A stretch of 64,000 bases of DNA from Candidatus Poribacteria bacterium (GTDB taxonomy: Bacteria; Poribacteria; WGA-4E; WGA-3G), in contig OZ244048.1 of the NCBI GenBank assembly GCA_965215265.1, forward strand, positions 864,001 through 928,000. Reading direction: 5' to 3'. Under the pieces are notes generated by a model that was not told the origin of the DNA, ran no database searches, and was given only the letters and a program-made list of their open reading frames with translations. The translations under genes were made by a program, and so were the position numbers. Shown in pieces: positions 494-63,566 of the stretch (positions are counted from its first letter, which is position 1; the number at the start of each line of letters is the position of its first letter).

Positions 494-615
494 TTTCGTA
501 TATCTCCGTACCATCAAGGGTTTTTGTCTACAGGAGCCCAATGACGCTCTATACCCTTGATGGGGCTGAAATATACAAAAAAACATCAGCCGTGATGGGG
601 CTGCAGTATACAAAC
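494..615. repeat. R1 repeat cluster (4 partial units, two in each orientation)
   Basis: TTCGTATATCTCCGTACCATCAAGGG and TTTGTCTACAGGAGCCC on +; CCCTTGATGGGGCTGAAATATACAAAA and GATGGGGCTGCAGTATACAAA are reverse copies. Confidence 0.8.
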
Positions 616-636
616 TTACACGAATGGAGGCAAGTT

Positions 637-1692
637 ATGAAAACTTACGGTTTTGGGATTATCGGGTGCGGAATGATTTCAGATTTTCACTCCGCCGCGA
701 TAGCTGAATTAGCGCGTGGACACCTCGTTGCTGTCAGTTCCAGAAGTGCCGATAACGCAAAACGGCTCACTGACAGATACAATGTTGACAGCTACGCCGA
801 TTACAACGAAATGCTCAAACGGGACGACCTGGATGTTGTGTGTATCTGTACGCCCAGTGGTGCACATTTAGAACCTGCAGTCGCTGCAGCTAAAGCAGGC
901 AAACATGTTATCGTTGAAAAACCCCTTGAAATTACCTTACAACGCTGCGATGGGATTATCGAAGCGTGTGATGAAGCAGGCGTCCGACTGTGTGCTATTT
1001 TCAATTCTCGCTTTACCGAAAGCACACAACTCGTCAAATCCACTATTGAAAGTGGACGCTTCGGTAAGTTAACGTTAGGCGATGCTTATATCAAATGGTA
1101 CCGTTCGCAAGAGTATTACGACAGCGGCGGTTGGCGCGGTACGTGGCATTTGGATGGTGGTGGTGCACTCATGAACCAATCCATTCACGCTATTGACCTG
1201 CTTCAGTATTTCATGGGTCCCGTCAAAGCTGTACAAGCTTTTACCGATACATTAGCACACGAACGCATTGAAGTTGAAGATGCCGCCGTTGCCGTGCTCC
1301 GCTTTGAAAACGGTGCTTTGGGAGTCATTGAAGGCACAACCGCGACATACCCCGGCATGCTTAAGAAAACTGAAATCTCCGGCACAAACGGCACCGTTAT
1401 CCTTGAGGAAGAAGATATTGTCAAATGGGAATTTGACCCCGAACTTCCCGAAGATGCTGAGATTCGGAAAAACTTTGCACAAAAAACAGATACCGGCGGC
1501 GGTGCCTCCGACCCGCGTGCTATTAACCATGCAAACCACCGACGACAGATGGAAAACCTCATTAATGGGTTGGAAACCCACGCATCGCATCTCGTTGATG
1601 GACGTGAAGGTCGGAAAGCTGTAGAGATTATCCTCGCTATCTATCAATCGAGCCGGGAAGGTCGGATTGTCTCCTTACCTTTATCAACATAA
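637..1692 (+). CDS. Gfo/Idh/MocA family oxidoreductase
   Basis: GIIGCGMI Rossmann motif, KHVIVEKP, GGGALMNQSIH. Start moved to ATG 637 (GGAGG upstream) because the 541-636 extension is repeat DNA. Confidence 0.92.
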   Translation: MKTYGFGIIGCGMISDFHSAAIAELARGHLVAVSSRSADNAKRLTDRYNVDSYADYNEMLKRDDLDVVCICTPSGAHLEPAVAAAKAGKHVIVEKPLEITLQRCDGIIEACDEAGVRLCAIFNSRFTESTQLVKSTIESGRFGKLTLGDAYIKWYRSQEYYDSGGWRGTWHLDGGGALMNQSIHAIDLLQYFMGPVKAVQAFTDTLAHERIEVEDAAVAVLRFENGALGVIEGTTATYPGMLKKTEISGTNGTVILEEEDIVKWEFDPELPEDAEIRKNFAQKTDTGGGASDPRAINHANHRRQMENLINGLETHASHLVDGREGRKAVEIILAIYQSSREGRIVSLPLST

Positions 1693-1732
1693 CGCGCCTA
1701 ATACCAACGGAGACGATTCCTCCTATGTTTCA

Positions 1733-1790
1733 GGATTCCCTCTCCTCTCCGTGCTCAGGCAGGAGAAGAAGTGGGAATCCCTTTTTTTTG
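1733..1790 (+). terminator. Possible bidirectional terminator or hairpin between convergent genes
   Basis: GGATTCCC...GGGAATCC stem followed by a T run. Confidence 0.4.
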
Positions 1791-1935
1791 TATATCTCCG
1801 TACCGTCAACGCTTATGTCGTGAATACCTGTGTGTAAATCTCGTCGGAGCCCTTCGATGTTTTGATTATTTTTGTCTATCTTGGTACCGTCAACGATTAT
1901 GTCGTGAGGACTCGTGTGTTGGCAGGTTCGGTATG
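1783..1935 (+). repeat. R1 repeat cluster (2 tandem units)
   Basis: TTTTGTATATCTCCGTACCGTCAACG...GTGTAAATCTCGTCGGAGCCC, then TTTGTCTATCTTGGTACCGTCAACG...CGTGTGTTGGCAGGTTCGG. Confidence 0.85.
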
Positions 1936-2012
1936 GTGCCCACCCACCCAATTCCTTTCTAGGTTATGATTCATATATCCACAAATTGTGCAAAGGTGAT
2001 TGTCTAATATTA

Positions 2013-2996
2013 TTACGAATAATCAAACACGATTTTAATCGCCTCATCCTTTTTATTCAACGACATCTCAAATCCACGCTGTGCCTCAGTAAACGGTAAA
2101 TGATGCGTAATAATCGGGGAGACATCAAAGCGGCCTTGCAAGATCATATCCCTCGCTAACGGAAAATCGTTCTGCGCCTCTGGACCGACAGAGCCGATGA
2201 ATCGGAGGTTCTTCCGGAAAAAATCTGCAAAATCGAAGTTATAAACCTCATCATCCGGCACACCAAAAGCGAGAAGGGTACCTTCCTTTTTCAAAAGTTG
2301 GAGGCACTGGTTAATCGTTTCCGTCTGATGTCCAACTACCTCAATAACTAGGTCTGCCATTCTGCCATCCGTAAGTTCCGCTACCACTGCGACCGGGTCT
2401 TCTTGAGCAGCATTAATTGTGTGTGTGGCGCGCATCTGCTTAGATACATCAAGCCGGAAATCAACCAGATCTGTCGTAATCACCGCTCTCGCCCCGAGGT
2501 TGCTCAACATGTGCGTAAAGAGCAGTCCCATCGGACCTTGCCCAATAACCACCGTTACTTGGTTCAACAGGTTCCCCAATTTCCGACATGCCCAGACAAC
2601 AGTGCCAAGCGGCTGAGCCATCAATAGGCAGTCTTTACGTACACTCGTTACTGTTTCTTGCGAAAACGATAAGGGGATTATGGCATTCTCATGCGATAAG
2701 AAATATTCAGAAAGTCCTCCGATATCGCTTGGGAGCGCGAGCACCTCATCGCCCGGCTTAAAACGTTCCGATTTACTCTCAACCACAACCCCTATGGCTT
2801 CATGGATGGAGAGCCCCGCACGGAGCGGATAAGCTTCTTGTGGGGATTCAAGCACGAACCACGGCATATCGCTTCCGCAGATAGCACTATGAACGGTTTG
2901 AATCATCACCATGCCATCTGGATAATCCGCTAAGTCCGGTTTTTCTATCTCAATAATTTCAATCTGACGTGGTGCAACAATTTGTCCAACTTTCAT
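2013..2996 (-). CDS. Zinc-binding (MDR) dehydrogenase
   Basis: SAICGSD, IHEAIG and VIGQGPMG motifs of medium-chain dehydrogenases. Confidence 0.9.
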   Translation of the reverse strand: MKVGQIVAPRQIEIIEIEKPDLADYPDGMVMIQTVHSAICGSDMPWFVLESPQEAYPLRAGLSIHEAIGVVVESKSERFKPGDEVLALPSDIGGLSEYFLSHENAIIPLSFSQETVTSVRKDCLLMAQPLGTVVWACRKLGNLLNQVTVVIGQGPMGLLFTHMLSNLGARAVITTDLVDFRLDVSKQMRATHTINAAQEDPVAVVAELTDGRMADLVIEVVGHQTETINQCLQLLKKEGTLLAFGVPDDEVYNFDFADFFRKNLRFIGSVGPEAQNDFPLARDMILQGRFDVSPIITHHLPFTEAQRGFEMSLNKKDEAIKIVFDYS

Positions 2997-2997
2997 A

Positions 2998-3212
2998 CTT
3001 TCGTATATCTCCGTACCCTCAACGTCTGTCCTTTTGAAGGCTCGTGTGTAAATCTCGTTTTTTTGTATATTTCAGCCCCATCAAGGGGTTATGTATTGTT
3101 AAATCCGATATAAATCTCGTCGGAGGTTAACTCGGTATAGCATAAAGCGATAAGCCAAAACGGCAGTGGCGAGGCTCACCAATCCTGCCTGCAGGAATCT
3201 ATAGACAAAAAA
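2998..3212. repeat. R1 repeat cluster (2 nested units plus an inverted end and R2 remnant)
   Basis: TTCGTATATCTCCGTACC...GTAAATCTCGT|TTTTTTGTATATTTCAGCCCCATCAAGG...AAATCTCGTCGGAGGTTAACTCGGTATAG. Confidence 0.85.
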
Positions 3213-3225
3213 GGAACTCCGGTTA

Positions 3226-4197
3226 TCAGAGTGACCGGACAGCCTCTAAGACTTGCGAGTGTATTTTTCCGTTCGTCGCGACGATACCCCGGTTTTCAAC
3301 CATCCGTCTGCCAGCACCAAAATTCAGGAGCGCGCCGTTTGCATCGGTTACCATGCCCCCTGCCTCTTCTACAATAATGAGCCCCGCGGCGTGGTCCCAG
3401 ATGCATTCCCGGTAATCTGGAGACGCAGGATTTGGTAACCGGAGATAGAGCGAAATATCGCCTCGGGCGAGCAGAGCGTACTTCGCTTGGCTGTCCATCT
3501 GAATCGGGGGCACAGTCATCTTGAGTCGATCTGCGATTTCTGCATGTCTATCGCTGTCACCGTGTGTGGATTCAAAACTCTCTGCTAACCGGTCTGCCTC
3601 GTCTCCAACGTGCGCTTCTCCTAAGAAATTGCCGGCGAGTGAATACATCGCGGTCCCTTCGCCACGAACCGCCACAAAGAGGCAGCCGCGTTCCGATTCC
3701 GGCGCATTCAACCGTTGCGGTAGATTCGGACATGCTAAGATACCGAGCGCGACTTCACCATTAACAATTTCGGCTAACGCAATCGCGTACTGGTCGTGGC
3801 GGAGGAAGCCTTTGGTACCATCAATCGGATCGAGTGTCCAAAAGTTTTTCCCCACGCAATCCGTGCCTCGATTAATCCATTCGCAGAGTACTTCAGGCGA
3901 TGCGGAAGAGCATCCTGACTGCACCTGACGGGAGTTAACGTAGTGGACAACACGTTTCAAAAGGTCCGGATTGGCTTTTAGCGATGCCGCATCCTCTTCT
4001 GCAACAATAGCAGTTCCTGGAAACGCATCGCCAATCGCCTTGCAAATAAGTGCCTGCGCCCCGAAATCTGCTACCGTGACCGGGCTCCGATCGGCTTTTT
4101 GAAGAGAATCTGTAGAGACTAATTCAGTTTCAACCTGTTGACAGAGTTGGACAGCTTTTAGTACCGCGGCAACCGCGAGTTGTTTCTTAGATGGCAT
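3226..4197 (-). CDS. 3'(2'),5'-bisphosphate nucleotidase, HAL2-like (inositol monophosphatase superfamily)
   Basis: SPVTVADFGAQ, WTLDPIDGTKGF, MDSQAKY and IWDHAAG motifs. Confidence 0.9.
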   Translation of the reverse strand: MPSKKQLAVAAVLKAVQLCQQVETELVSTDSLQKADRSPVTVADFGAQALICKAIGDAFPGTAIVAEEDAASLKANPDLLKRVVHYVNSRQVQSGCSSASPEVLCEWINRGTDCVGKNFWTLDPIDGTKGFLRHDQYAIALAEIVNGEVALGILACPNLPQRLNAPESERGCLFVAVRGEGTAMYSLAGNFLGEAHVGDEADRLAESFESTHGDSDRHAEIADRLKMTVPPIQMDSQAKYALLARGDISLYLRLPNPASPDYRECIWDHAAGLIIVEEAGGMVTDANGALLNFGAGRRMVENRGIVATNGKIHSQVLEAVRSL

Positions 4198-4202
4198 TTT
4201 CC

Positions 4203-4282
4203 TTTTTTGTATCTTTCAGCCCCATCAAGGGTTATGTATTGTTAAATCCGATGTAAATCTCGTCGGAGGTTAACTCGGTATA
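4203..4282 (+). repeat. R1 unit, near-identical to the copy at 3062-3140
   Basis: TTTTGTATCTTTCAGCCCCATCAAGGGTTATGTATTGTTAAATCCGATGTAAATCTCGTCGGAGGTTAACTCGGTATAG. Confidence 0.9.
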
Positions 4283-4358
4283 GTCTTTTAAAATCAAAAC
4301 ATCAGTCAGCTCAGCCGATCTATAGATCGCCTTTGATGTTTAGATTGATAATAAAAAT

Positions 4359-5003
4359 TTAAAAAAGTGTCATTCTCGGCAGTTCACCTGCCTCAAGTTG
4401 TTTCCGCCGTGCCTCGGCGATATCGTCAATCACAATTTGCCGCGTCACCCTAAAATTCTCTCCTTCTTGACGCATGACATAAGCCGGGTTAAACGTTGCC
4501 ATAGCAAATGGGGCATACAGCGTATCTGTAAACCAGATACCGCGTTCTTCTGTAATCCGGAACTGCCGATGAATCAGTACTTTCGCCGCAGGGCTTCCCA
4601 TGCATAAAATTACCGAGGGATGGAGGAGGTACAGCTCACCATCAAGCCATTTGGAACAGGCCTTGATTTCTGATGCCTTCGGCGGACGGTTTTTTAGCAC
4701 ACCGCCCCTGAGCCCTGCTGCACGGCATTTAATGATATTGGTTATCCAGAGTTCACTGCGCGTTAATCCATTGATGATCAGCACTTCATCCAGAAAATCA
4801 CCAGCTGGCCCCGAAAACGGAACCGTCGTCTGATTATCTGCCGCAGAAGGCCCCTCTGCAACGATGACCAACTTCGCCTCAGTATCTCCATAACCAAAAA
4901 CGACGTTTGCCCGCGTCTCTGACAACGTGCAATCCGTACAAACGCTTGCCCGTATTTTGAGCGTATTCATCGCTTGATGACGTTCGATGCTGGAATCTGT
5001 CAT
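4359..5003 (-). CDS. Uracil-DNA glycosylase, family 4 ([4Fe-4S] type)
   Basis: CTDCTL, VFGYG, AEGP, PFSGPAG, ITNIIKCR and NRPP motifs. The usual TxHP motif reads TFNP. Confidence 0.85.
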   Translation of the reverse strand: MTDSSIERHQAMNTLKIRASVCTDCTLSETRANVVFGYGDTEAKLVIVAEGPSAADNQTTVPFSGPAGDFLDEVLIINGLTRSELWITNIIKCRAAGLRGGVLKNRPPKASEIKACSKWLDGELYLLHPSVILCMGSPAAKVLIHRQFRITEERGIWFTDTLYAPFAMATFNPAYVMRQEGENFRVTRQIVIDDIAEARRKQLEAGELPRMTLF

Positions 5004-5027
5004 AGTCCGTCTGCTGTTCTATTCTAC

Positions 5028-7601
5028 TTATAAACTACCACCGGATGTTTTCGAGAACCGGATGTTGGCATGAACGAGTTTCTCTGTTCTCCCGAATGTG
5101 ATTCGGCAAATAGGCTTATCCCAACTGTATCGATAATCGCTTCCATAAGCAGACACACCTATCGGCAGATAATCCGCTGGTACATGAATGAAACAGGTCC
5201 CTTCTGCCTGCCGGATCGGTTTGCAAACCAGGAGATAACTTTCACTTTGCGAATCCCACCCTGCAGAGAGAATTTCAACACTTCCTTGGGTATAGTGCAT
5301 ATCTGTCGCAAGCAATTGCGGCGTAGGAAAGGCTTCCCGTAATGAGAGGAGTTTAGCAGAACGCGGTGAGATGTTCAACAACGTGAGGCTGCTAGAAACG
5401 GTGCCCAAGTATTGTCGCATCCAAAAATCATGTACGAGGTAGTCTTTTGATTCCGGCAAACCCAAGGCATCCAAGTCAAAGTAAGCATCATCCTCTTTGT
5501 CGTCCCAATTAAAGATAGCGACGAGGTGGTTTGCCAAGGTTGATTCTCTTATGTTATACGGACCGGATTGCGCGTCCATTTTGAGATGCCAAACACGCGG
5601 GAAAGGGTTCTCATAAAGATCTACAGGGGTGGCCGCTTTACCAAGCAGCGGGAAGAGTTTTGCTAACAGTTCAGCACGGTGCGGTTTGAGAGTTGCGACG
5701 GCATCTCCACAGAAGAGCGCGCCACCGCTTAAGGCTGCCGCAGTCATTTCGAGAATCGCTTCATTGATCGGACGCGGCTCGTCCACCGCAAGTTCGCCAA
5801 AGACGTGACTCCATAACACATTATGCTCACTGAGATGCACCGCGTGACGACTAATTCGGTGCTTAGTCCCCCGCTGACGATGCCAAAAGTGGCTCCCATC
5901 TGTCGGCATGGTGCCTTTCTCGCCACCGACGAGCGGGAAATTCAACGGAAAACCCCCGATGCAGGGCGCAGTAATTACATTGTACCCCGCAACCAGCACT
6001 GCTTTATCAGAAACGCCGCTATCTCGCACAGCATCTTTTACTAACTGGAGCGCTAACCGATAGAGCTGAATAGAGGTGAGCGAACTATCATGCCATCTCA
6101 AATTCCGCGCGGATGAGAGAACCGTGGTGTACCCCGAAAAATCGGCTTTTATCAAATCGTACTTCCATTCGCTGATTATCTGTTTAATCTGTTGACGAAT
6201 ATACGCTTGTGCATCCGGGTGTGAAACGTCTAATAAACCACCCTCTTTTTCACCAGGCATCACCCTACGTACCAAAACTGGGGATGCTGATGCCTTCCGG
6301 GGCCGACCTCGTTTTGAATTGGATAAGAAGTTCTCCCTGCTTTGCAGGGATGAATTCTTACCGCGCGATGAGCGACGGGAGGGAGGAGCAACTTCTTGTA
6401 GGAATAAGCGTGGGTGCTTTTGAAACAATTCAGACTTAACTGCTTCACAAAACAGGTTAATTCGGAGGCTTGTCTTGAAGCCTTTGCTCCGAATTTCGTT
6501 CACCACAGCAGACATGCCGTCTGGAAAATCTTCAGCATTGAGGACCCACGTACCATCGAAGTTGCGGGTACCCTCGATAGCATCCAGATGAATGTAATCT
6601 ATACCGCCAGGGGCACCCGGCTGAAAGAGCGGATTTTGGACAATCAGGTCGGTTTGCTCCAAGATGGATTTCGCAGTCAGATAAGGTTTATCTGGTGCCG
6701 CACCACGTTTCGTGCCCCTTCCAACTTGCGACGCAAGACTCCAGCCACTGATAATCTGTGCAGTCCTTTGTGCCTTATTCTGTGCCGCTAATAGTGCCGT
6801 ATAGTGCTCATAACTTGAGGTAGCATCCTTTGAAAAATTAAGGTAAGCTGACTCCGACGTTATTTCTTCGCCCTGACGACACGAGCGGCCCTCACACTTA
6901 TGATAGAGTGACCACAAGTTAACGCTGGAAACGTCATCAGCCTTTTGGTAACCCACTTGAACGTGGGGCCACCACTGTTCCGTCGTCAGGAAACCAAAGA
7001 CGAAAGCACGTTTGCTCTCCGTATCGTGAAGCACGCCGTTATGACAAAGATCAATGGCATCCTCTTCACTAAGTTGAAAACCGTCATAGAGTTTTTGAAA
7101 TCCACCAGGAACTGTCGGGAGCATATTGAGAAAAATATAATAATTCGATGGGGGTCCTCCTAATTGCAATCCTCCATTCTTCGCTGAAAGCCCTAACAGC
7201 GTTAAACTGTCTAATTCAATCGATGCCTCTTTTAAATTTTCAACTCCCACTTTCAGTTCGATATGCGGTTCGGACAGAGAGCAGCTCACATAGATATTTA
7301 AGCGGATACCTTTTCCTTTCGCTTCGTGAGAAAATCGTACCTGTTGGACGTGTTTATCCGTGGCATCAGGACCAGACGGAACGACATCTGTCATAAATTC
7401 GCACGTCCCAGTGTCCTCTGTTGTGACAACCGAACCATCACCGAGGGTGAGCTTCGTGTATCCGTTCTTGATAATCGTGTACCCTGTTCCATCAATGTAA
7501 TCCCATGTCCCTTTTGAAAGATTGAACTCAATCCGAAATTCCTTGTGGTTTATCACAGCAAGGTTGCCCTGCCGTGAGACTGCTAAATCACTTGCTTTCA
7601 T
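5028..7601 (-). CDS. Alpha-galactosidase-like glycoside hydrolase (GH36/GH27 clan), possibly divergent
   Basis: FPDGM..VVNEIRSKGFK, LDVSHPDAQAYI, YDLIKADF, and a C-terminal VAIFNW...YLVHDFW beta domain. Confidence 0.65.
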   Translation of the reverse strand: MKASDLAVSRQGNLAVINHKEFRIEFNLSKGTWDYIDGTGYTIIKNGYTKLTLGDGSVVTTEDTGTCEFMTDVVPSGPDATDKHVQQVRFSHEAKGKGIRLNIYVSCSLSEPHIELKVGVENLKEASIELDSLTLLGLSAKNGGLQLGGPPSNYYIFLNMLPTVPGGFQKLYDGFQLSEEDAIDLCHNGVLHDTESKRAFVFGFLTTEQWWPHVQVGYQKADDVSSVNLWSLYHKCEGRSCRQGEEITSESAYLNFSKDATSSYEHYTALLAAQNKAQRTAQIISGWSLASQVGRGTKRGAAPDKPYLTAKSILEQTDLIVQNPLFQPGAPGGIDYIHLDAIEGTRNFDGTWVLNAEDFPDGMSAVVNEIRSKGFKTSLRINLFCEAVKSELFQKHPRLFLQEVAPPSRRSSRGKNSSLQSRENFLSNSKRGRPRKASASPVLVRRVMPGEKEGGLLDVSHPDAQAYIRQQIKQIISEWKYDLIKADFSGYTTVLSSARNLRWHDSSLTSIQLYRLALQLVKDAVRDSGVSDKAVLVAGYNVITAPCIGGFPLNFPLVGGEKGTMPTDGSHFWHRQRGTKHRISRHAVHLSEHNVLWSHVFGELAVDEPRPINEAILEMTAAALSGGALFCGDAVATLKPHRAELLAKLFPLLGKAATPVDLYENPFPRVWHLKMDAQSGPYNIRESTLANHLVAIFNWDDKEDDAYFDLDALGLPESKDYLVHDFWMRQYLGTVSSSLTLLNISPRSAKLLSLREAFPTPQLLATDMHYTQGSVEILSAGWDSQSESYLLVCKPIRQAEGTCFIHVPADYLPIGVSAYGSDYRYSWDKPICRITFGRTEKLVHANIRFSKTSGGSL
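6324..6360. repeat. R2-like hairpin inside the glycoside hydrolase CDS
   Basis: TCCCTGC-TTT-GCAGGGA stem. The 16-mer TCCCTGCTTTGCAGGG recurs in the intergenic hairpin at 57491-57506. Confidence 0.7.
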
Positions 7602-7688
7602 ACATGGTTCCTTCCATGGCGTTCATACTTTAGCAATATAGAGTTGTCTTCGCTATCCATCAAATTTCCTATACACATATTGGCTTTA

Positions 7689-7790
7689 TTCGTATATCTC
7701 CGTACCGTCAACGTTTATGTCGTGATTACTCGTGTGTTGGCAGGTTCGGTTTTCTTTATCTCTCCTTATAGGAGAGATAAAGAACCTAAC
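7689..7790 (+). repeat. R1 unit fused to an R2-type hairpin
   Basis: First ~65 bp nearly identical to 60616-60682, followed by the palindrome TTCTTTATCTCTCCT-TAT-AGGAGAGATAAAGAA. Confidence 0.85.
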
Positions 7791-7813
7791 AGACAACAGT
7801 GTCTGTGCGAAGT

Positions 7814-47535: not shown

Positions 47536-47626
47536 CCTAAATTGAATCTAAACATCAGGAGCCTCCGACGAGATTTACACACGAGCTATCAGAGCAGGAG
47601 CGTTGATGGTACGGAGATATATAAAA
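47536..47626 (-). repeat. R1 unit (reverse)
   Basis: CTCCGACGAGATTTACACACG...CGTTGATGGTACGGAGATATATAAAA. Confidence 0.85.
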
Positions 47627-47726
47627 GAATGTAGCAACACTCTCTATTTTCTGTAAAAAGTAGAACCAGGGATTGTATCATAACAGTGAAATCATAAGAT
47701 TCTTGAAAGGACAAAGAGGAGTCAAG

Positions 47727-50595: not shown

Positions 50596-50735
50596 CCTAA
50601 AATCGCAGGTAGGGCAAGTTTGCGTTCCCATTTCCACCTGTTTATTGCGTGCCGTGCGTGTTCAATCACCGAACACCACACATTCCGACTGAAGCTTCCC
50701 CATTCCGCTGACCGTGTGAATCTCCCTAGGTTATA

Positions 50736-50819
50736 CTATACCTAAGAAGTCTCTGACGAGATTTACACACGCACTTCCAAAATCATAGACGTTGATGGCA
50801 CGGAGATATACGAAAAAAA
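50736..50819 (-). repeat. R1 unit (reverse, full length)
   Basis: CTATACCTAAGAAGTCTCTGACGAGATTTACAC...CGTTGATGGCACGGAGATATACGAAAAAAA. Confidence 0.85.
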
Positions 50820-51659: not shown

Positions 51660-51673
51660 TGCTTGTCCTTCAC

Positions 51674-51738
51674 CCCAATGGGTGGCAGGTAAAAGGTTAT
51701 CTTCTCTCATGGACAGAGAAAGATACCTATCCTGCCAC
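51674..51738 (+). repeat. R2 hairpin element (intergenic)
   Basis: CCCAATGGGTGGCAGGTAAAAGGTTATCTTCTCTCATGGACAGAGAAAGATACCTATCCTGCCAC. Confidence 0.88.
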
Positions 51739-51753
51739 TTCTGCGAGGGCAGT

Positions 51754-52494: not shown

Positions 52495-52594
52495 TTTTTC
52501 GCCTCCTACTCTGGAGTTTTCCAAATTACCGGGGATTGTAGATAAAACTGTCATTAGCAAACTCCTGCGGGGTATACAAAAGGGACAGCCGCTT

Positions 52595-53299: not shown

Positions 53300-53434
53300 A
53301 AAAATAGCCTCCCAATGGAACTGGTGAAAATGTCCCCCGGTTCGCGAATGAATAACAAGCAGAGATGGTAAGCAAACGTTCCGGGAAAATAACCGATGGG
53401 AAAAAGACAGCAAAGAGCGATCCGGTAATCGTCT

Positions 53435-53848: not shown

Positions 53849-54018
53849 TGATTCACTTCCTCAATATGAAGACTTCCAATTTAGTTTAGCATAAATGCAC
53901 AGATGATGTCAATTCTTTTGATTTTTTGAGACTAACTATGGTAAAATAATACGGAACGCGGTTCTCTTGATACTGCTGGGGCGTAATAAGGGGCAGGAAG
54001 GATTGCGCGTTTACCTGA

Positions 54019-56176
<2,158 letters not shown>

Positions 56177-56177
56177 C

Positions 56178-56500
56178 TTTTTGTATATCTCCGTTTTTGT
56201 CTACAGGAGCCCTACAACGCCTGATGTTTTGTTAATCATTGTGTACATCTCGTCTTTTTGTATATGTTAGCACAGCTTTTTGTATATCTCCGTACCATAA
56301 AGGTTTATGTTTTGTTAATCACTTTATAAATCTCGTTTTTTTCGTATCTTTTAGCACGTCAACGTCTGATGTTTTGCTATCCGTTGTACAAATCTCGTCG
56401 GAGGGGTTCTCTGTTTTGTGTTGTACATCAGAAGTCTCTGGCGAGTTTTGTGCGGGGTTGTTCATTACATCTGATGTAATGTGCTGAGATATACGAAAAA
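56178..56500. repeat. Largest R1 cluster (5 units on +, 1 inverted)
   Basis: Unit heads near 56180, 56196, 56257, 56279 and 56341, and a reverse head near 56497. Confidence 0.85.
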
Positions 56501-56533
56501 TTCTTTCCTGTGCTGTATACTATGCTTTGACAG

Positions 56534-57457
56534 TTAGCGTCGACAAATTTTCAAGGTTTCTTCAAGGTTCTGGATTCCAGCTGTGGTGCCTATGGCGGTG
56601 ACGCAGGCGGCCCCGGTTGCGGAAGCCAGTTCGGCTGTAGCATTCAACTCCCAGCCCATGACCGTTCCCGCGAGGAACCCGGCGACATACGCATCACCGG
56701 CACCGGTGGCATCAATGACGTTCACGTTGTAGGCCGGTACAAAGATTTCTTCGTCAGCGGTTCGGACATAACTCCCTTGCTCTCCAATTTTAATAGCAAC
56801 GGTATGGATGCCGTAACGCAGCAAGGATGCGGCGATATTAGAGGGTTCTGTCTTTCCAGTCAGATGTTGTGCTTCAGCGAGACTCGGCAGAAAAATATCA
56901 ACGTAAGACAAGCACGGTTCCAGGATTTCGAGCCATTTTCCAGTTGCATCCCAGGCCGTATCCAGAGAAGTGGTAATGCCATGTGCCTTAGATTTGCGGA
57001 GGACATTTGCCATCGGCTGTCCATCAAAGTTCGGCATGACGAGGGCACCGCCAATGTGCAGAATTTTAGTATTTTTAATGATGTCCCATGCTAGGTTATC
57101 TTCAGAAAGTTCTGCGTTTGCACCGATGTAATGACAAAAACTCCGTTCCCCATCAGATGCGATGGCGACGAACGTAAAAGAGGTGTTAACATGTGCATCC
57201 CGGGACATGCCGGTTGTGTCAACGCCGTTCTCTTGCAGCGTGCGCAACACGAGGTTTCCGAAGTCGTCTCTGCCAATATTCCCCATTGCTCCAACGGAGA
57301 TGCCGAGGCGTGCCAGTGCGATAGCGGTGTTGTTGGCACAACCCCCGGCATGGGTTTCAAGTTCGTCAAAGAGTATTAATTTCCCCTTGTCGGGAAACTG
57401 GTTGATAGTTCTTCCAAGTACATCTACTACGAAAATTCCCAAAGAGAGTACATCCAT
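56534..57457 (-). CDS. PfkB family carbohydrate kinase
   Basis: GGCANNTAIALARLG, DGERSF and DATGAGDAY motifs. Confidence 0.93.
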   Translation of the reverse strand: MDVLSLGIFVVDVLGRTINQFPDKGKLILFDELETHAGGCANNTAIALARLGISVGAMGNIGRDDFGNLVLRTLQENGVDTTGMSRDAHVNTSFTFVAIASDGERSFCHYIGANAELSEDNLAWDIIKNTKILHIGGALVMPNFDGQPMANVLRKSKAHGITTSLDTAWDATGKWLEILEPCLSYVDIFLPSLAEAQHLTGKTEPSNIAASLLRYGIHTVAIKIGEQGSYVRTADEEIFVPAYNVNVIDATGAGDAYVAGFLAGTVMGWELNATAELASATGAACVTAIGTTAGIQNLEETLKICRR

Positions 57458-57458
57458 T

Positions 57459-57740
57459 CTTTTGTATACCTCAGTGGCACTGCCGACTCTTCCCTGCTTT
57501 GCAGGGCAAAGTCAGCAGTGCCAATCTATGGATAAATCTCGTCGGAGCCGTTCGCGGTTTAGATTCAATACATCGAAGGGCTCCGACGAGGCTTGTAAAG
57601 GGTTTAGCATAGCAGCAACCTTTATTGGGCTAAAAGATACTAAAAATCTCGTCGGAGATTGCTTAGGTATAGTCTTTTGAAGTCAAAACCTAAGCGGCTT
57701 TTCGTATACTGGAGCCCTACTGTGCTGAAATATACGAAAG
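57459..57740. repeat. R1/R2 mosaic cluster
   Basis: An R1 unit interrupted by the hairpin TGGCACTG...CCCTGC-TTT-GCAGGG...CAGTGCCA (57475-57523), inverted R1 units, and AAATCTCGTCGGAG twice. Confidence 0.8.
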
Positions 57741-59654
57741 CACTAAAGTTTCATCTGTTTGTCTCACATGCCCGTTCGCATAGATATCTCCAAAAGGTTG
57801 CGATGTCCAGCCGATTGACACCGGGGCTTCTTGATTCGTGAGATATTGCAACACGCCTTCCTTTTGTAGAATTCGTGCGAACTGCTTTTGGATGCCAAAG
57901 AGTCCTTGGAGAGCCGGTATCTGTTTTTGCGTTTTAGTTAGCTGATACGCATTCTCAAGTTCCGTTGGAAGAGACTGTGGCGTGAAAAATGTCTCTATAA
58001 TATATGTTCTCGGATGCCACGGTTCCAAGGCGACCTGGCGCAACTGAGATGTGGAGGATTGAATAAATGCTTCGTTTGATGCCGCAGTTAAAGGGGTGAT
58101 TAGGACAGGTTTATCAAACGCAATTGATGTTTCGGTATGCCTGGTTGCCCTAATCGCAATGTAACGTTGCAAATGTGCTCGATGGCGTTCTGGATAGATG
58201 GATAAAATGGAGAATGAGTCTGCGGCGATACTGTTCGGCAAAATCGTTTGCGCGATGCCGATTGCCCCGATGGAAAGGAGTCCAAAGAGTCCGCCGGCTA
58301 TCCAGTAGCGGCGCGCGCGCCTTTGTGGCCGCCCTAAATAGAATAAGATGCCGCCCAAACTAAGCAGGTACGCAGGTAAGACGATAGCGAGCTGTTTAAT
58401 GAGCGGCACCTGTGTTGGCATTTTTAATAGAAACTGTTCATAAATCTTCTGTTCGTGTTCGCGGTGTAGTGCATACCGGTCAGCGAAGTGTCGAGGTGAT
58501 TTTCCGGCCGTTTTGAGTAATTGATTCCAAAAAACTTCCGCTGTTTTCTGTGCTGAGAACGGTGGCGCGTTATAATCGAAAGCCAGACATAGAATCTGTC
58601 CACTGCCAAAATTCCGTTTTGCTATGTAGATGTCTTCAGCAGTTCCCATCACAACTTGACATCCGACGTTGGGTTGAAAGCGGATTTTTTGTATTGCACC
58701 GAGGTCGGATTGCTCGTCTAAGCTCTTTGCGTTTAAAAAGTGCTTGTTCAGCCCAGTGGGTGGCAGGTAAAAGGTTATCTTCTCTGTCCTCGAGGATAGA
58801 GAAAGATACCTATCCTGCCACTCAGCAACGGTTTCCACGCCGTTCAGTCGAACGGGGAGGAAGGGTTCAATGAAACTCTTCTGCAGGTAGCGGAAATTGC
58901 TGCCGCCGGACAGTATGAGGGTGCCGCCGTTTTGTACCCAATCCAAGAGTGCTGTCTGCTGTTGTTTGGAGATGTTTCTCTCGGTTAACGCCGTCTCACG
59001 AATGACTATCGTATCAACGGCATTATAGCCTATCCACTGTGTCGGCATTGTGCGTGCATTCGGAAGGTAATCGACGTGTATTTGCGCCCCGGTGCCATAG
59101 ATCTGTTGTTTATCTATAAATTGCTGTAATCTGTCACCGTTTGGTGCGAGTGCCAGTACGAAATAGTCTTGGCGAGCGATCGGTGTTGAGGGTATTATTT
59201 GAGTTTTGGCTAGAACGGTTTTAGGCGGCGTAGTTGGATGGCGTTTTGTGGGATTCTCAGCATGCACGAGTTGAACGACCAGTTTTGCCGCGACTTTGGG
59301 GCAGTAGACGTAGAGCTGCCTCCGCCGCCGATGGAAAGGTGCCGCATGCGTTTGGAGCAGTGCATCGGAAAAAGCGTTGCGCACCTCTACACGGAGCTCT
59401 CCGACAAACGGTTCATTCTGACTGCGGACAGTGATATCCAGGGGTGCCCAGGTAGCAGCTTTGTACTTTCCGTTGAACCCGAACGTCACGTTCTCAAACT
59501 CCATCGCTCTTAAAGTTACCGGGGCCTGAATCAGGATTAACAAGCTCAGCAAGGCAAGTGCCTGCAAGCTCCTCACTGTGTGGGTAGCGAAATGCTTTGC
59601 ATAATAGGTGAATAGGTTTTTCACGCTCTGATAAGGTGAGCAGGATTTAAACAT
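57717..59654 (-). CDS. Hypothetical membrane protein with GATase1-like domain (start uncertain)
   Basis: GFNGKYK...W.PL, W.GYNAVD, ALLDWVQNGGTLILSGG, RNFGSGQI and two TM segments. Confidence 0.7.
   Translation of the reverse strand: MFKSCSPYQSVKNLFTYYAKHFATHTVRSLQALALLSLLILIQAPVTLRAMEFENVTFGFNGKYKAATWAPLDITVRSQNEPFVGELRVEVRNAFSDALLQTHAAPFHRRRRQLYVYCPKVAAKLVVQLVHAENPTKRHPTTPPKTVLAKTQIIPSTPIARQDYFVLALAPNGDRLQQFIDKQQIYGTGAQIHVDYLPNARTMPTQWIGYNAVDTIVIRETALTERNISKQQQTALLDWVQNGGTLILSGGSNFRYLQKSFIEPFLPVRLNGVETVAEWQDRYLSLSSRTEKITFYLPPTGLNKHFLNAKSLDEQSDLGAIQKIRFQPNVGCQVVMGTAEDIYIAKRNFGSGQILCLAFDYNAPPFSAQKTAEVFWNQLLKTAGKSPRHFADRYALHREHEQKIYEQFLLKMPTQVPLIKQLAIVLPAYLLSLGGILFYLGRPQRRARRYWIAGGLFGLLSIGAIGIAQTILPNSIAADSFSILSIYPERHRAHLQRYIAIRATRHTETSIAFDKPVLITPLTAASNEAFIQSSTSQLRQVALEPWHPRTYIIETFFTPQSLPTELENAYQLTKTQKQIPALQGLFGIQKQFARILQKEGVLQYLTNQEAPVSIGWTSQPFGDIYANGHVRQTDETLVLSYISAQ
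58752..58821 (+). repeat. R2 element in frame (antisense) inside CDS 57717-59654
   Basis: CCCAGTGGGTGGCAGGTAAAAGGTTATCTTCTCTGTCCTCGAGGATAGAGAAAGATACCTATCCTGCCAC, translated as WQDRYLSLSSRTEKITFYLPPTG. Confidence 0.88.
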
Positions 59655-60517
59655 AATCGCGTCTCCAATGCTGCATCAAAAGCATGGGTGCTAAACACTC
59701 CATTTCCTAACATAATCATTGATGCGACTCCGCCTCTCGCTTCAACTTGTGCGATTGTCCGTATGACTTGCGGCTCGCGGAGCAGCCCACTTTCGACTGT
59801 AAATTGCTTGGATACCGCTAAGCAAGCGTTAAACATATCGATATGAGCGGCTGTCTCTTGTGATGGCAAAACAATCTTGCTGCTCTGCTCGACGAGTTGT
59901 TTTAAAGTGGTTAATGCTGTATCGGCTGCGCGATTGATGCGCGCCACTTGTTTAGGGTTTGCTAGTACCTCGCTCGTTTGAATAGGACTGAAATAGCGAT
60001 AGTAGATAGGCTGTTCCTCGACGTGCGGCACCCTTTCAGCGACTAACGGTGCTCCTTCTTTTAGCTTAGCAAGGCAGCCGCCGTGGTATTGCGAACAGAC
60101 ATCACCGAGTCCAGTCCGGTTTTCGACTTCGGCGACGTGCGCTATCATAGCGAGTGCTTCATTGGGTTCGCGAAGTCCGAACTGTTCGTTTAGCGCGTAT
60201 GCAGTCGCTAAGGCAGATGCCCCACTGAGCCCGAAGCCGCATCCTAACGGGAGCGGCGAGTGAATCTCCGCTTTTACCGTGTTCGGTTGTGTGGTTCCGG
60301 CGCGTTGACTTAACTTATGGATGACAGCCCGCACGGTGGGAAAATCAATTTCCTGTCCATTAAAAAGGATTTTCGTCTCATCATGCGTAGAAACGGTGAC
60401 GGTAACCCCTTCCTTCACAGTAAAGCCCATACCGAGGGAGTGCATGCGCGTTGGTTCGGCATCTGGAATAATCTTAAAAATGCAAGAGATATTGCCTGGG
60501 GCAAATGCACTCGTCAT
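59621..60517 (-). CDS. GHMP kinase, archaeal-type pantoate kinase-like
   Basis: SAFAPGNISCIF, PLGCGFGLSGASAL, AHVAEVENRTGLGDV.SQ..GG and ASMIMLGNGVF motifs. Confidence 0.8.
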   Translation of the reverse strand: MTSAFAPGNISCIFKIIPDAEPTRMHSLGMGFTVKEGVTVTVSTHDETKILFNGQEIDFPTVRAVIHKLSQRAGTTQPNTVKAEIHSPLPLGCGFGLSGASALATAYALNEQFGLREPNEALAMIAHVAEVENRTGLGDVCSQYHGGCLAKLKEGAPLVAERVPHVEEQPIYYRYFSPIQTSEVLANPKQVARINRAADTALTTLKQLVEQSSKIVLPSQETAAHIDMFNACLAVSKQFTVESGLLREPQVIRTIAQVEARGGVASMIMLGNGVFSTHAFDAALETRLCLNPAHLIRA

Positions 60518-60524
60518 TTTTTCG

Positions 60525-60925
60525 TTTTTTTGTACACTGGAGCCCCAACAAGGCTGATGCATTGTTCAATCCACTATAAATGTCGTCGCCCGCCCACCCA
60601 AATCCTTTGATGTTTTTCGTATATCTCCGTACCGTCAACGCTTATGTCGTGAGCACTCGTGTGTTGGCAGGTTCGGTTTTCTTGTCCCAGTGGGTGGCAG
60701 ATAAAAGGTTATCCCAATGGGTGGCGAGTAAAAGGTTATCTTGTCTCATGGACAGAGAAAGAATACCTATCTCGCCACTTTTCACTCCTTGCAGGAGTGA
60801 AAAGAAAACCTATCCCTCAACCTTATCCTGCCAATCTATAGATTTGTGCTAAGGTTAACATTGCAGCAGCCTTTATCGGGCTCTTGTAGACAAAAGACCT
60901 TTATTGGGCTCCTGTAGACAAAAGA
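60525..60925. repeat. R1/R2 mosaic cluster (4 R1 heads, 2-3 R2 pieces)
   Basis: R1 at 60529 and 60616 on +, and near 60895 and 60923 on -. R2 at 60686-60833, including the palindrome CTTTTCACTCCT-TGC-AGGAGTGAAAAG. Confidence 0.85.
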
Positions 60926-60926
60926 C

Positions 60927-62336
60927 TTATACATTCTGCCGAGGTGGCGCGTACCTCGGATGGAATGCACCTTCTCCGTACTGAGTGCCGCCAATCTTTG
61001 CGGCTTGCCCGCCGCCGGTAACGGAGCATCTAGCCCCGTCCAATTCTGGTAGGACATATCGGCTAAACCATGCGCCCATCTGCTGTCGCATGTCAGCAAT
61101 TCGTGTCTGCTGAGATTTTTCATCAATGAGGTTTTTCCGTTCACCTGAGTCATTTACCAAATCGTAGAGTTCATGGGGGCCATAAGGATAACGGTGCACG
61201 TATTTCCACTCTTGCGTCCGAATCATACGCACGGGCCCGTATTCATCGTAGATGACGATTTTTTGTTTGGCATCGTTCGTCTGTCCGGTTAGTACGGGTA
61301 CAAAACTTCTTCCGGGCGACATATCGTCATTTGGATGGGGGAGGCCGAGATAGTCCAAAAGAGTCGGCATGAAGTCGTATTGACTGACCATGGCGTTGCT
61401 AACGCGTCCCTCTGGAATTACCCCAGGGTGACTAATGATGAATGGTACTTTGACAGAGTTTTCGTACATATTCAAGGGAAAAGTGCCGTTGCCTTTATGC
61501 CAGAAGCCGTGATGTCCGCAGGAATAGCCGTTGTCACTGCTAAACACAATCAATGTTTCCTCGCGGATGCCTGTCTGCTCTAGCCGTTCTATTATGCGTC
61601 CAACATTTAGATCTAGGGCAGTTATGGCTGCGAAGTAGCCTTTCAACGACTCGCGGTTTCCCATGTGAACTGCTGCCCCCTGTACTGCCCAAGCGTGTAA
61701 AGCCTCCTGTGGGCACGTTTTAAACGGACACTCGTCGTAAGAATCAACGATATCCTGCGGATGTCCGGTAAACGGTGTGTGTGGTGCGTTGTAGTTCACA
61801 CTGAGATAGAATGGCCCATCTTGATTCGTGGAGATAAAATCCAATGCATCATCGGTAATGACATCGGTGAGGTAACCCGGTTGCTCCGCCACCTGTCCGT
61901 CCCGGATCATGTTCGCATTGTTATATTGACTCCCGCCGGTAGGGAGACAGAACCAGTGGTTAAAGCCGTGCTGTGGTGACAAGCTGTCTCCGAGGTGCCA
62001 TTTGCCGCTAAGTCCAACGGTATAGTTATTGTCAGCGAGTACATCGGTATAACAGGTTAAGCCTTCAAGGTATCGTGCTGGTTCTGGGGGCATGTTGCCA
62101 TCGCGTATCCAGTCGTGTACGCCGTGTGCTGAGGGGATACGCCCGGTCATGAGACTCGCACGTGCGGGTGAGCAGACAGGGCTTGTGCAGAAGAAATTCT
62201 CAAATCGAGTGCCCTCTGATGCCAACCGGTCGAGATTCGGCGTTCGGACCTCATCGTTGCCGCAACAACCGGCCGCCCACGGTCCCTGATCATCTGTTAA
62301 AATAAATATAACGTTGGGTTGATTTTTCGTCTCCAT
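60927..62336 (-). CDS. Formylglycine-dependent sulfatase
   Basis: PNVIFILTDD, CSPARASLMTG, GKWHLG, SDNG and ELYDL motifs. Start at METKN. Confidence 0.95.
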   Translation of the reverse strand: METKNQPNVIFILTDDQGPWAAGCCGNDEVRTPNLDRLASEGTRFENFFCTSPVCSPARASLMTGRIPSAHGVHDWIRDGNMPPEPARYLEGLTCYTDVLADNNYTVGLSGKWHLGDSLSPQHGFNHWFCLPTGGSQYNNANMIRDGQVAEQPGYLTDVITDDALDFISTNQDGPFYLSVNYNAPHTPFTGHPQDIVDSYDECPFKTCPQEALHAWAVQGAAVHMGNRESLKGYFAAITALDLNVGRIIERLEQTGIREETLIVFSSDNGYSCGHHGFWHKGNGTFPLNMYENSVKVPFIISHPGVIPEGRVSNAMVSQYDFMPTLLDYLGLPHPNDDMSPGRSFVPVLTGQTNDAKQKIVIYDEYGPVRMIRTQEWKYVHRYPYGPHELYDLVNDSGERKNLIDEKSQQTRIADMRQQMGAWFSRYVLPELDGARCSVTGGGQAAKIGGTQYGEGAFHPRYAPPRQNV

Positions 62337-62566
62337 TTTTATATATCTCCGTACCATCATTGCTTAGGTTGTGTCAAATCCGATGTAAATCTCGTCGGAG
62401 ACTCCTTAGGTATAGCCTTTAAAACTAAACATAAACGGCTCTAGCGGCAGTGGCAAAACAACACTCGCCAACAAGATCAGCCTTTAAAACTAAACATAAA
62501 CGGCTCTGGCGAGATTTGTACAGGTTTTAGCATAGCAGCAGCCTTTATGGGGCTCCAGCAGACGAA
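62337..62566. repeat. R1 inverted pair with internal 29-bp direct repeat
   Basis: A full R1 unit on + and a reverse unit ending inside the PhyH stop region. AGCCTTTAAAACTAAACATAAACGGCTCT at 62414-62442 and 62479-62507. Confidence 0.85.
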
Positions 62567-63420
62567 GAAGCTATCGGAAACGCGTTTCCGACGAGCGGTT
62601 GACCGTCTTCCACCTCAATTGTGGGAACAAGGACGTGATTCGGGGATTGTGCCTTGTTGTAACAAACGTCTTTCGCCATGAAAATCATGACGAATGCCCG
62701 ACGTTGGTGTTCGGTGGTGTTCGGTGGCGTCCCGTGAAAGTTTAAGCAGTGATGGAACATGCACTCCCCGGCTTTCAACTCCACGGGTATCCCATGAGTG
62801 ATGTCAAGGCTGCGTCTTTCATCCCAGGGGTTGGGTGGTGGTTCGCGTCCTTCCTTGCGTGCTGCGTCGGTTTCGGCGTTGAACGCGGTTCTCACTGCGA
62901 CAGAGAACCGTGCATCTTTGTGACTCTTGGGCATGACGTGCATGCATCCGCTATCTACGGTGGCATCGTCCAAGGCAAGCCAACAACTCACAATGTTAGA
63001 TGGACTGAGCGGCCAAAAGAAGAAGTCGTGATGAAAACCGAAGTGCCCATTATCGTGGGGTGGCTTAGAAATGACCTGGTCGTGCCAGAGTCGGACTTCA
63101 GGTGTATCCAGAAGTGCGCGAGCGGTCCCTGCGATTAACGGGTGATGAATCGTCTGCTCATAGTAGGTATCTCGCTTCCACATATTTACGTATTGATGAA
63201 TTGCACGCGGATGTCCTGCTCCTCTGTTGAGCCGGTTTTCACGCCGGTCGTGTCCATATTTAAATTCCGGTGACGAGTCGTCGCCGCCGTTATTAAGTTC
63301 CAATTCAACCACGGCATCTAATCCGGAGCGCATCGCTTCAACGCCGTCGCCATCTAAAACTCTTCCAAACTTGAGATAGCCGTTTTCCTGAAAAAAATCG
63401 ATTTGTGCTTGTGTTACCAT
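62545..63420 (-). CDS. Phytanoyl-CoA dioxygenase (PhyH) family protein
   Basis: FQENGYL, HHDFFFW, CWLALDDAT.DSGCM..MPKSH, AGECMFHH..FHG and RRA motifs. Confidence 0.9.
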   Translation of the reverse strand: MVTQAQIDFFQENGYLKFGRVLDGDGVEAMRSGLDAVVELELNNGGDDSSPEFKYGHDRRENRLNRGAGHPRAIHQYVNMWKRDTYYEQTIHHPLIAGTARALLDTPEVRLWHDQVISKPPHDNGHFGFHHDFFFWPLSPSNIVSCWLALDDATVDSGCMHVMPKSHKDARFSVAVRTAFNAETDAARKEGREPPPNPWDERRSLDITHGIPVELKAGECMFHHCLNFHGTPPNTTEHQRRAFVMIFMAKDVCYNKAQSPNHVLVPTIEVEDGQPLVGNAFPIASSSAGAP

Positions 63421-63566
63421 TTTTATATATCTCCGTTTTCTTGTATATTTCAGTCCGTTAAAGGCTGCTGCTTTGATAAGTCCCTTAGAAATCTCGTTTT
63501 TTCGTATATCTCCGTACCATCATCGCCCAATGGGTGGCAGCCTTTAATGGGCTCCTGTATACAAAG
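63421..63566. repeat. R1 cluster (3 nested units on +, 1 inverted) with R2 fragment
   Basis: TTTTATATATCTCCGT|TTTCTTGTATATTTCAG...AAATCTCGT|TTTTTCGTATATCTCCGTACCATC, CCCAATGGGTGGCAG, and GGGCTCCTGTATACAAA. Confidence 0.85.

Follow-up and report, generated by a model that had tools for sequence, protein, structure and literature searches.

The 64,000-nucleotide window analysed here (G000:C1:864001-928000) comes from the single-contig genome of a Candidatus Poribacteria bacterium, G000 (4,833,177 bases, 48% G+C), and contains a dispersed repeat that we call R1. R1 is probably a previously undescribed family of non-coding, non-autonomous interspersed repeats built from a 61-nt block, of the same kind as repetitive extragenic palindromes (REP) and bacterial interspersed mosaic elements (BIME), BOX elements and miniature inverted-repeat transposable elements (MITEs). 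A genome-wide nhmmer search with a profile from 18 window copies returned 781 matches, rising to 853 units in 411 clusters after one iteration. Near full length was found for 684 of these units, and R1 makes up 1.07% of the 4.83 Mb genome. The 14-mer AAATCTCGTCGGAG occurs 209 times in G000 (110 + 99) compared to ~0 expected, and GTATATCTCCGTACC is found at 89 + 74 places. No description of R1 was found in the paper-library literature on Poribacteria repeats.

The first-pass annotation of the window had placed the repeat in its two outer parts, with none in the middle, and this distribution was confirmed. A covariance model built from 19 window units and run with filters off gave 28 matches at E<=1 in 12 clusters (19 of the 28 being the seeds themselves), all located inside 493-7752 and 47562-63567, with the interval from 7.8 to 47.5 kb empty. 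The nhmmer count in the window is 22 units, and a repeat search of the window recovered families of 10-11 copies for the R1 head and for the whole 65-nt unit on both strands. Clusters are concentrated in sugar, sulfatase and oxidoreductase gene neighbourhoods, with the housekeeping stretch at 8-47 kb avoided. Clusters are over-dispersed across the whole genome, with an index of dispersion of 5.1 per 50 kb and 20 of 97 bins empty, and the repeat-free middle of the window thus fits the genome-wide clustering.

The anatomy of the unit was likewise borne out. Each unit consists, in order, of a T-run, (C)GTATA or GTCTA, a head of ~10 nt, a core of ~30 nt and AAATCTCG, which may continue into TCGGAG and a tail carrying GGTATAG or GATGTTTAGATT. 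Unit lengths spread over 56-67 nt around the building block of ~61 nt. The head-to-CTCG distance, previously described as constant, is 60-62 nt in 511 of the 684 near-full units and 58-63 nt in 640 of them. This near-constant length could be explained by descent from one 61-nt ancestor, without further selection. CTCG is followed either by the T-run of the next unit, or by TCGGAG and a tail that makes up one of the two halves of a central hairpin; GGTATAG and GATGTTTAGATT belong to hairpins of this type.

Units are assembled into composites comprising one or more tandem units, a centre, and one or more inverted units, with the heads directed outward. The stem of the central hairpin is the palindromic pair ATCTCGTCGGAG / CTCCGACGAGAT (K/K'), with 12-nt arms around a centre of 25-50 nt. 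Both outer ends are T-run/GTATA (or GTCTA) heads, i.e. terminal inverted repeats. Clusters contain 1-11 units, and neighbouring units are arranged in tandem in 242 pairs (modal gap -1) and tail-to-tail in 183 (modal gap 39-47 nt), with only 17 pairs head-to-head. Two classes of head can be distinguished: Y heads are of the form ...CTCCGTACC (reverse complement GGTACGGAGATATAC), and Z heads, given as GGGGCTGAAATATAC or GGGCTCCTGTAGAC, are of the form ...CAGCCCC, ...GGAGCCC or ...GCAGCAC. The arms on either side of a centre usually differ in class. Tandem neighbours are mostly of the same class. Tail-to-tail partners are YZ in 108 cases, ZZ in 55 and YY in only 4, compared to 31 YY expected (chi-square p=1e-7). 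The arms within one composite are only ~65% identical to each other. The compact composite at 56339-56499 is predicted to form a long imperfect hairpin (-36.7 kcal/mol, z -4.9; none of 200 shuffles folds as well), and folding of the long-centre composite at 62336-62568 is unremarkable (z 0.0). A second palindromic repeat, R2 (...TGGCAGGTAAAAGGTTATCTTGTCTC...GAGACAAGA...), often lies inside or beside R1 centres and is present in the window at 7753-7795, 51674-51723, 58752-58801 and 60686-60810. A diverged R2 counterpart, in the form of CCCCTGCTTTGCAGGGG modules, was seen in G060, a genome from another genus of the same family.

Comparison of copies points to copying of units or composites between loci. 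Where sequences at different loci match at 92% identity or more, the similarity breaks off at -1/0 of the T-run on either side. Of 150 sampled units, 72 are at least 95% identical to their nearest copy in a different cluster and 16 are identical to it, the median identity being 0.94. Adjacent tandem units have a median identity of 0.73, similar to the 0.74 of random same-class pairs, and 10 of 87 tandem pairs are at least 95% identical compared to 5 of 597 random same-class pairs. Local duplication hence occurs, and does not explain most arrays. The arrays are also polar: among 91 arms of at least two full units, the copy found elsewhere is closer for the inner unit in 63 and for the outer unit in 21 (Wilcoxon p=2e-6), with median identities of 0.952 for inner and 0.919 for outer units. 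CG(T/C)T, left over from an even older unit, stands before approximately 55 of the 476 heads that look outermost, and one composite is nested exactly between CTCG and CGAG of an older one. The twelve clusters of the window are as follows.

Cluster 1, 493..616, both strands: three truncated units (493-527 +, 538-581 -, 555-616 -), heads outward.
Cluster 2, 1785..1934, + strand: two Y units, 1785-1850 and 1869-1934, the second ending in GTTGGCAGGTTCGG (junction with R2) in place of AAATCTCG.
Cluster 3, 2998..3139, + strand: Y unit 2998-3059, directly at the start codon of the alcohol dehydrogenase (ADH)-like gene 2013-2996(-), then Z unit 3060-3126 with tail TCGGAG...GGTATAG.
Cluster 4, 4204..4345, + strand: one Z unit, 4204-4269, with 6 nt between it and the start of the inositol-monophosphatase (IMPase)-like gene 3226-4197(-), plus a tail hairpin region.
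Cluster 5, 7687..7795, + strand: Y unit 7687-7752 fused to an R2 palindrome (~7753-7795).
Cluster 6, 47541..47629, - strand: one Y unit, 47562-47627, with a GATGTTTAGATT-type tail, ~100 nt upstream of a xylose-isomerase-like gene.
Cluster 7, 50731..50818, - strand: one Y unit, 50750-50816, with a GGTATAG tail, between two gene ends.
Cluster 8, 56172..56499, both strands: head fragment 56178-56193 abutting an ABC-ATPase start codon; tandem units 56194-56259, 56277-56342 and 56343-56404, then the centre, then inverted unit 56435-56499.
Cluster 9, 57459..57760, both strands: head fragment 57459-57476 at the PfkB start codon; K motifs at ~57533 and ~57644; inverted unit 57580-57645; degenerate units 57686-57760.
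Cluster 10, 60527..60924, both strands: units 60527-60592 and 60614-60679; R2 palindromes at ~60686-60810; inverted Z units 60831-60896 and 60898-60924.
Cluster 11, 62336..62568, both strands: Y unit 62336-62401 abutting a sulfatase start codon (~62337); long centre; inverted Z unit 62503-62568.
Cluster 12, 63414..63567, both strands: head fragment 63420-63437 at the PhyH start codon; unit 63438-63503; Y head 63493-63526; inverted Z head 63517-63567.

The recent history of these clusters can be read from two relatives: G025, of the same genus as G000 with genes 73-86% identical, and G060. Both are syntenic with G000 over the two parts of the window that are rich in R1. In G025 each of the 12 gaps that hold R1 in G000 is shorter and lacks units, and the same sites are also unit-free in G060; the 56.9 kb of syntenic DNA from the two genomes yields a single weak partial profile match. 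Cluster 1 is a clean insertion, with 127 nt of R1 (496-622) in the place of 5 nt (ATAGT) in G025 and with conserved flanks. The family spread within the G000 lineage after its split from the same-genus species. G060 has K-bearing elements of its own at three other places in the syntenic stretch.

Among 121 sampled Poribacteria genomes, the 14-mer is found 209 times in G000, 61 times in G060 and 5 times in G025, with 1-2 occurrences in each of 11 others, and the covariance model matches these three genomes alone. The G025 and G060 units are 61 nt long and share the T-run and ATCTCG(TCGGAG) with those of G000, with different heads and cores; in G025 they form arrays of nearly identical units. 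R1 is therefore not strictly species-specific, diverged 61-nt versions being present in both relatives. The K motif ATCTCGTCGGAG is identical at 12 of 12 positions across genera whose genes are 73-86% identical, and the core is not conserved. Because K, not the core, is conserved across genera, this 12-nt palindrome-forming motif may be a protein or recombination site. A scan for the K..K' pattern in one genome per species (G000 left out) found 32 loci; a single Poribacteria record holds 9 of these, and the remaining 23 are isolated matches in unrelated phyla, of which the one that was read is G+C-rich coding-like DNA. No blastn match to R1 was obtained in plasmids or phages, nor any K..K' match in viral contigs.

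R1 lies mostly between genes and has a defined relation to gene starts. On a crude map of 3802 open reading frames (ORFs) of at least 90 aa covering 86% of the genome, 640 of the 853 units are essentially outside ORFs, and 139 overlap ORFs by more than half, largely through first-start ORF calls that run into the repeats. On the opposite strand the head reads GGTACGGAGATATACAAAAA, often followed directly by ATG. A start codon of an ORF of at least 80 aa lies within -2..+3 nt of 76 of 805 heads and of 0 of 660 tail ends; random positions fall near a start in 185 of 4000 cases, a control inflated by internal in-frame codons. The head-to-start distance peaks at +1 nt (44 cases). Start-abutting heads are Y in 48 cases, Z in 21 and unclassed in 7, though Z is the commoner class overall. 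Singleton units between co-directional genes direct the head toward the downstream start in 109 cases and toward the upstream end in 27. In composites, Y heads face starts in 60 cases and ends in 34, and Z heads face starts in 65 and ends in 88.

Five of the window genes with abutting heads were compared with the relatives: the ADH-like (2996), IMPase-like (4197), ABC ATPase (56176), PfkB (57457) and PhyH (63420) genes. Their orthologues in G025 and G060 have the same start codon preceded by ordinary Shine-Dalgarno leaders (AAGGAGAGTTT-ATG, GGAGGAACAAG-ATG). From this comparison of leader sequences we infer that R1 heads now act as the translation-initiation regions of these five genes, replacing the ancestral Shine-Dalgarno leaders. 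As read from the sequences, the GGAG of the head is ~12 nt from the ATG compared to 5-8 nt in the leaders of the relatives; because of this greater distance, the A-rich spacer may matter as much as GGAG. In-frame ATGs are present inside Y heads (ATGATGGTACGGAG...), at window 62337-62360 and similar sites, so first-start ORF calls over-extend genes into R1. The sulfatase gene most likely starts at ~62337 rather than at 62360. Two further tests were uninformative: that for displaced Shine-Dalgarno sequences because the tail-side boundary of singletons is undefined, and that for strand bias because GC skew gave no usable origin or terminus (48% of genes lie on the inferred leading strand).

We propose that units or composites would be copied between loci by a DNA-level, orientation-specific process at or next to K and the centre. 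Growth at the centre would push older units outward, where decay would follow, and arms would lengthen additionally by local tandem duplication. The mobilising enzyme would be none of the recognisable transposases of G000. Selection may then retain copies whose outward head (GGAG, then an A-rich spacer) faces a downstream gene, and the head could in this way take over the ribosome-binding leader in many genes. The first-pass annotation had listed three candidate classes, a non-autonomous mobile element, a recombination-site family and a small structured RNA family. The first of these is favoured by the intergenic location, the hundreds of near-identical copies, the gain within one lineage, the sharp ends and the lack of an encoded enzyme in the window; the last is unlikely, as described below.

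Several observations weigh against a mobile repeat family. No target-site duplication (TSD) was found in 5 full-length copy pairs or at the G025 empty site, a 1-2 nt A/T duplication being possible. The traces of recent transposition could also have been left by gene conversion among copies, the apparent age of outer units may come from adaptation or decay beside genes, and the identity of K across genera could mean a host function instead. G000 has 0 matches to PF01797 (Y1/RAYT), PF01385 (TnpB) and PF00665 (rve), with PF01797 detected in the control genomes; PF13358 (DDE_3, IS630-type) gives only fragments and PF01609 (DDE_Tnp_1) only weak matches. The sole reverse transcriptase (RT) of G000 belongs to a diversity-generating retroelement (DGR), beside its Avd gene. 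Finally, no within-species filled/empty polymorphism is observable, the short-read contigs breaking at the clusters. Public short-read contigs from 4 runs (4 studies) compared with 47000-64000 all stop at clusters where they are long, none bridging one, and the joints listed in them are chimeras through other R1 copies. A metagenome scan with the PfkB protein found 5 loci, the best 77% identical and none from the same species. At window 63422, a high-depth contig of one public run matches PhyH up to the start codon and then runs into an ordinary leader (CATTCCTCC...), from which it follows that a related empty-site organism co-occurs in that sample.

The first-pass annotation had noted that the window encodes no cognate enzyme, and indeed no transposase, recombinase or RT family was found in the 51 window ORFs scanned. 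In G000 as a whole, the DGR holds the only RT, and no parent insertion sequence (IS) with matching ends was found among the transposase matches. The mobilising activity may have been lost or may go unrecognised, or the family may have spread through recombination. More speculatively, and with a low probability in our estimate, an unrecognised site-specific DNA enzyme acting at the conserved palindrome ATCTCG^TCGGAG would move R1. New units would be added beside the centre, leaving the youngest inside and the oldest outside, and the ends would have evolved to imitate ribosome-binding leaders and overwrite the space from Shine-Dalgarno to start without silencing the gene.

It is unlikely, in our view, that R1 is a fossil of Y1 transposition, in which composites moved as single-stranded hairpins by means of an IS200/IS605- or RAYT-type Y1 transposase that has since been lost; REPINs and palindrome-associated elements are moved in this manner. 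Such a process would suit the precise head-to-tail joining of units in one orientation without a TSD, as well as inverted doublets that fold back. Both R1-bearing relatives are rich in the IS200/IS605 family, with 96 PF01385 and 34 PF01797 matches in G025 and 57 and 3 in G060, compared to 0 and 0 in G000. In G025 the left-end hairpin of a tnpB-only element has an R1 array as its immediate neighbour, an adjacency that is probably a coincidence. Yet the absence of matches in G000 sits poorly with the 16 of 150 sampled units that have an identical copy elsewhere, and R1 units are fewest in G025, the genome richest in transposases. Furthermore, K is absent from all 20 tnpA/tnpB loci fetched from G025 and G060, and older-unit remnants aside, no conserved tetranucleotide precedes the outermost heads. 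Between G000 and G025, R1 is the more abundant where IS200/IS605 genes are fewer. A palindrome-associated element derived from IS200/IS605 was rejected because the 20 loci, which lack K, gave no sign of shared ends.

Other multi-copy sequences of G000 were considered as partners. Paralogue families (FGE-sulfatase, LRR, WD40, methylases) account for most of its multi-copy genes, alongside Rpn/YhgA-like genes, and the multi-copy ORFs L023, L026, L033, L035, L036 and L038 match nothing in Pfam or NCBIfam. Rpn/YhgA-like PD-(D/E)XK nucleases (PF04754) reach 23 matches in G000, the top of the 121 genomes, with 8 in G060 and 0 in G025. As a lead for R1 they are weakened by the many genomes without R1 that hold 7-10 matches, and by gene copies that have no R1-like ends. 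Rpn-like genes are located at G000:C1:3217892-3221754 and 4187902-4191932, three of them in a tandem run of ~1.23 kb units. A 10-copy cassette bounded by R1 was rejected as a transposon, as it encodes a DNA methylase and no transposase. This cassette (L102, G000:C1:816900-820100, with ~9 further copies) is ~2.4 kb long, is bounded by R1 composites and contains a 475-aa N6/N4 DNA methylase and a small ORF behind a TTGACA-17-TATACT promoter. A retroelement (SINE-like) reading had been considered on the basis of the A-run end and the head-retaining truncations (110 vs 19); it was rejected, since the only RT is that of the DGR and the truncation asymmetry is partly detection bias. The DGR (L069, G000:C1:1418596-1422237) consists of an FGE-sulfatase-like ORF, the Avd gene and a 354-aa RT, and lies beside a much-repeated region.

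Less probable still is the reading that the K palindrome and heads are kept for use by the cell, for protein binding or as a nucleoid site, as a hairpin for mRNA processing or stabilisation, as a weak terminator in both directions or as a portable translation-initiation leader, with copies multiplied by recombination. The identity of K in three genomes with differing cores would be expected of a functional site, as would the heads that abut starts (76/805 compared to 0/660 tail ends), with GGAG-bearing Y heads enriched there, and the orientation bias of 109 to 27. The concentration of clusters in sugar, sulfatase and oxidoreductase neighbourhoods, away from 8-47 kb, and their genome-wide over-dispersion (index 5.1) also agree with it. 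However, 118 of the 121 Poribacteria genomes lack the family, the orthologous genes of two relatives use ordinary leaders, and the GGAG of the head is at ~12 nt from ATG rather than 5-8 nt. No excess of sigma-70-like promoters or intrinsic terminators was found at R1. Many units are also directed at gene ends or belong to arrays with as many as 11 members, where one site would suffice.

The first-pass annotation had further proposed that the cores are under selection for a structure, with two covarying arms of a 6-bp stem flanking a ~17-nt loop. One G:C/C:G pair of this stem does covary; the rest of the stem is not borne out. Mutual information singles out columns 26/46 (G:C 258, C:G 176, G:T 56, A:T 29, A:C 34), with a weaker signal at columns 27/45, and the other stem pairs are no more complementary than expected. 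Pairing of the stem reaches 61.4% of cells in the 19 units of the window compared to 52.5% in shuffles, with 2 of 500 shuffles doing as well; nearly the whole signal comes from one pair (CG 7, GC 7, GU 3), and of two middle pairs one lacks pairing in 13 and the other in 16 of these 19 units. For 148 units elsewhere the values are 60.2% and 53.5%, from an alignment fitted to the structure and thus favouring the stem; one pair again drives the result (GC 72, CG 50), and 3 of the 6 stem pairs are unpaired in 53-81% of these units. RNAalifold predicts 0 pairs. The folding energy of the cores equals that of chimeric cores (-3.97 vs -3.87 kcal/mol, p=0.14), with cores on the gene-sense strand folding slightly better than chimeras (-4.34 vs -3.98 kcal/mol, p=0.004). 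Arm-to-arm duplex energy beats cross-subfamily chimeras when every copy is counted (p=2e-15), and the effect is gone when each of the 21 subfamilies is counted once (own vs foreign arm partner -1.37 vs -1.39, p=0.53); only the four largest subfamilies have 4-8 bp arms. Failure of the covariation under a correction of this sort is what the first-pass annotation had named as refuting its reading. Long-range pairing of the head CTCCG with CGGAG of the K motif was found in 67.0% compared to 60.9% in shuffles, with 27 of 500 reaching it, and was dropped. A search of Rfam gave 0 matches at the gathering score across the 64 kb and 0 at E<=1 for 56100-57800.

We conclude that R1 has no conserved RNA structure and a single covarying pair, which may be a relic or a small feature of protein contact. 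A small structured or cis-regulatory RNA family, each unit being a hairpin with a 17-nt loop, is accordingly most improbable: the standard pairing (77-87%) of the covarying pair, the arms of the four largest subfamilies and the slight advantage of gene-sense cores are outweighed by the missing consensus fold and Rfam match, the unpaired half of the stem, the loss of signal with one count per subfamily and the presence of units on both strands within one composite.

Among known repeat systems, the modular BOX elements appear closest in build to R1, the BIME/REPIN doublets being also close. BIMEs pair two repeat types (Y/Z) in opposite orientation, as R1 does. BOX elements of Streptococcus pneumoniae have the modular organisation boxA-(boxB)n-boxC, are located in or near transcription units and affect neighbouring genes, and a link to a transposase is only proposed for them (PMC3049150). 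Their composite intergenic build, with two different end modules, a variable number of tandem internal modules and a predicted fold-back on transcription (PMC3049150), is shared by R1. R1 differs in that the arm (head and core) is itself repeated, on both sides of a central palindrome and in a polar array. The host phylum also differs, and TSDs are reported for BOX (PMC3049150) and none was seen for R1. The likeness is one of architecture.

The REP/BIME and REPIN-RAYT systems of enterobacteria and pseudomonads resemble R1 in their hundreds of extragenic copies, in inverted doublets that form hairpins and in mostly vertical inheritance within lineages (PMC3116915, PMC3337134). Unlike these, R1 has neither a RAYT nor any other Y1 transposase in G000, and because the RAYT is lacking R1 is not a member of the REPIN-RAYT system. 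In contrast to REP, the conserved palindrome of R1 is the central K pair, and its units are 61 nt long and form tandem same-orientation arrays, not palindromes of 20-40 nt in strict alternation.

The Correia/NEMIS MITEs of Neisseria are 150-170 nt long with inverted ends, occupy ~1% of the genome and are located near genes, with which they are co-transcribed and to which they can donate expression signals. R1 composites are similar in their length of 150-170 nt, inverted ends, genome share of ~1% and closeness to genes. They differ in that no TSD and no parent IS were found, for which reason R1 is not filed as a classical MITE, and in arms that are ~65% identical and multiply in tandem. Integron attC sites, too, have a variable middle between short conserved end motifs that are set a fixed distance apart. 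An attC array was nevertheless rejected, as R1 occurs in both orientations with heads outward, has core subfamilies of hundreds of copies, and flanks metabolic genes whose order is conserved in unit-free relatives.

The middle of the window contains repeats of a different kind. A ~1.2 kb segment is present in two tandem copies that are 97-99% identical (38801-39100/40009-40308 and 39559-39691/40777-40909), with ORFs of unassigned family. Direct repeats of 92-93% identity (37205-37340/46653-46788 and 38693-38799/46788-46894) bracket a region with a 1606-aa Type ISP restriction-modification gene (41435-46255).

What is new for R1 is the census, the Y/Z rule, the polarity of the arrays, the conserved K motif and the occurrence of the family beyond a single species. 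R1 occupies >1% of a closed genome from an uncultivated phylum of sponge symbionts, where dozens of genes have had their leaders rewritten by the repeat. It affects the calling of gene starts, with ORFs over-extended into Y heads, and breaks short-read assemblies at every cluster. R1 may also shape the expression of carbohydrate and sulfatase genes. With two relatives that combine diverged R1 with many IS200/IS605 genes, in contrast to G000 which has none, the family provides a natural test case for the persistence of small repeats without a recognisable transposase.

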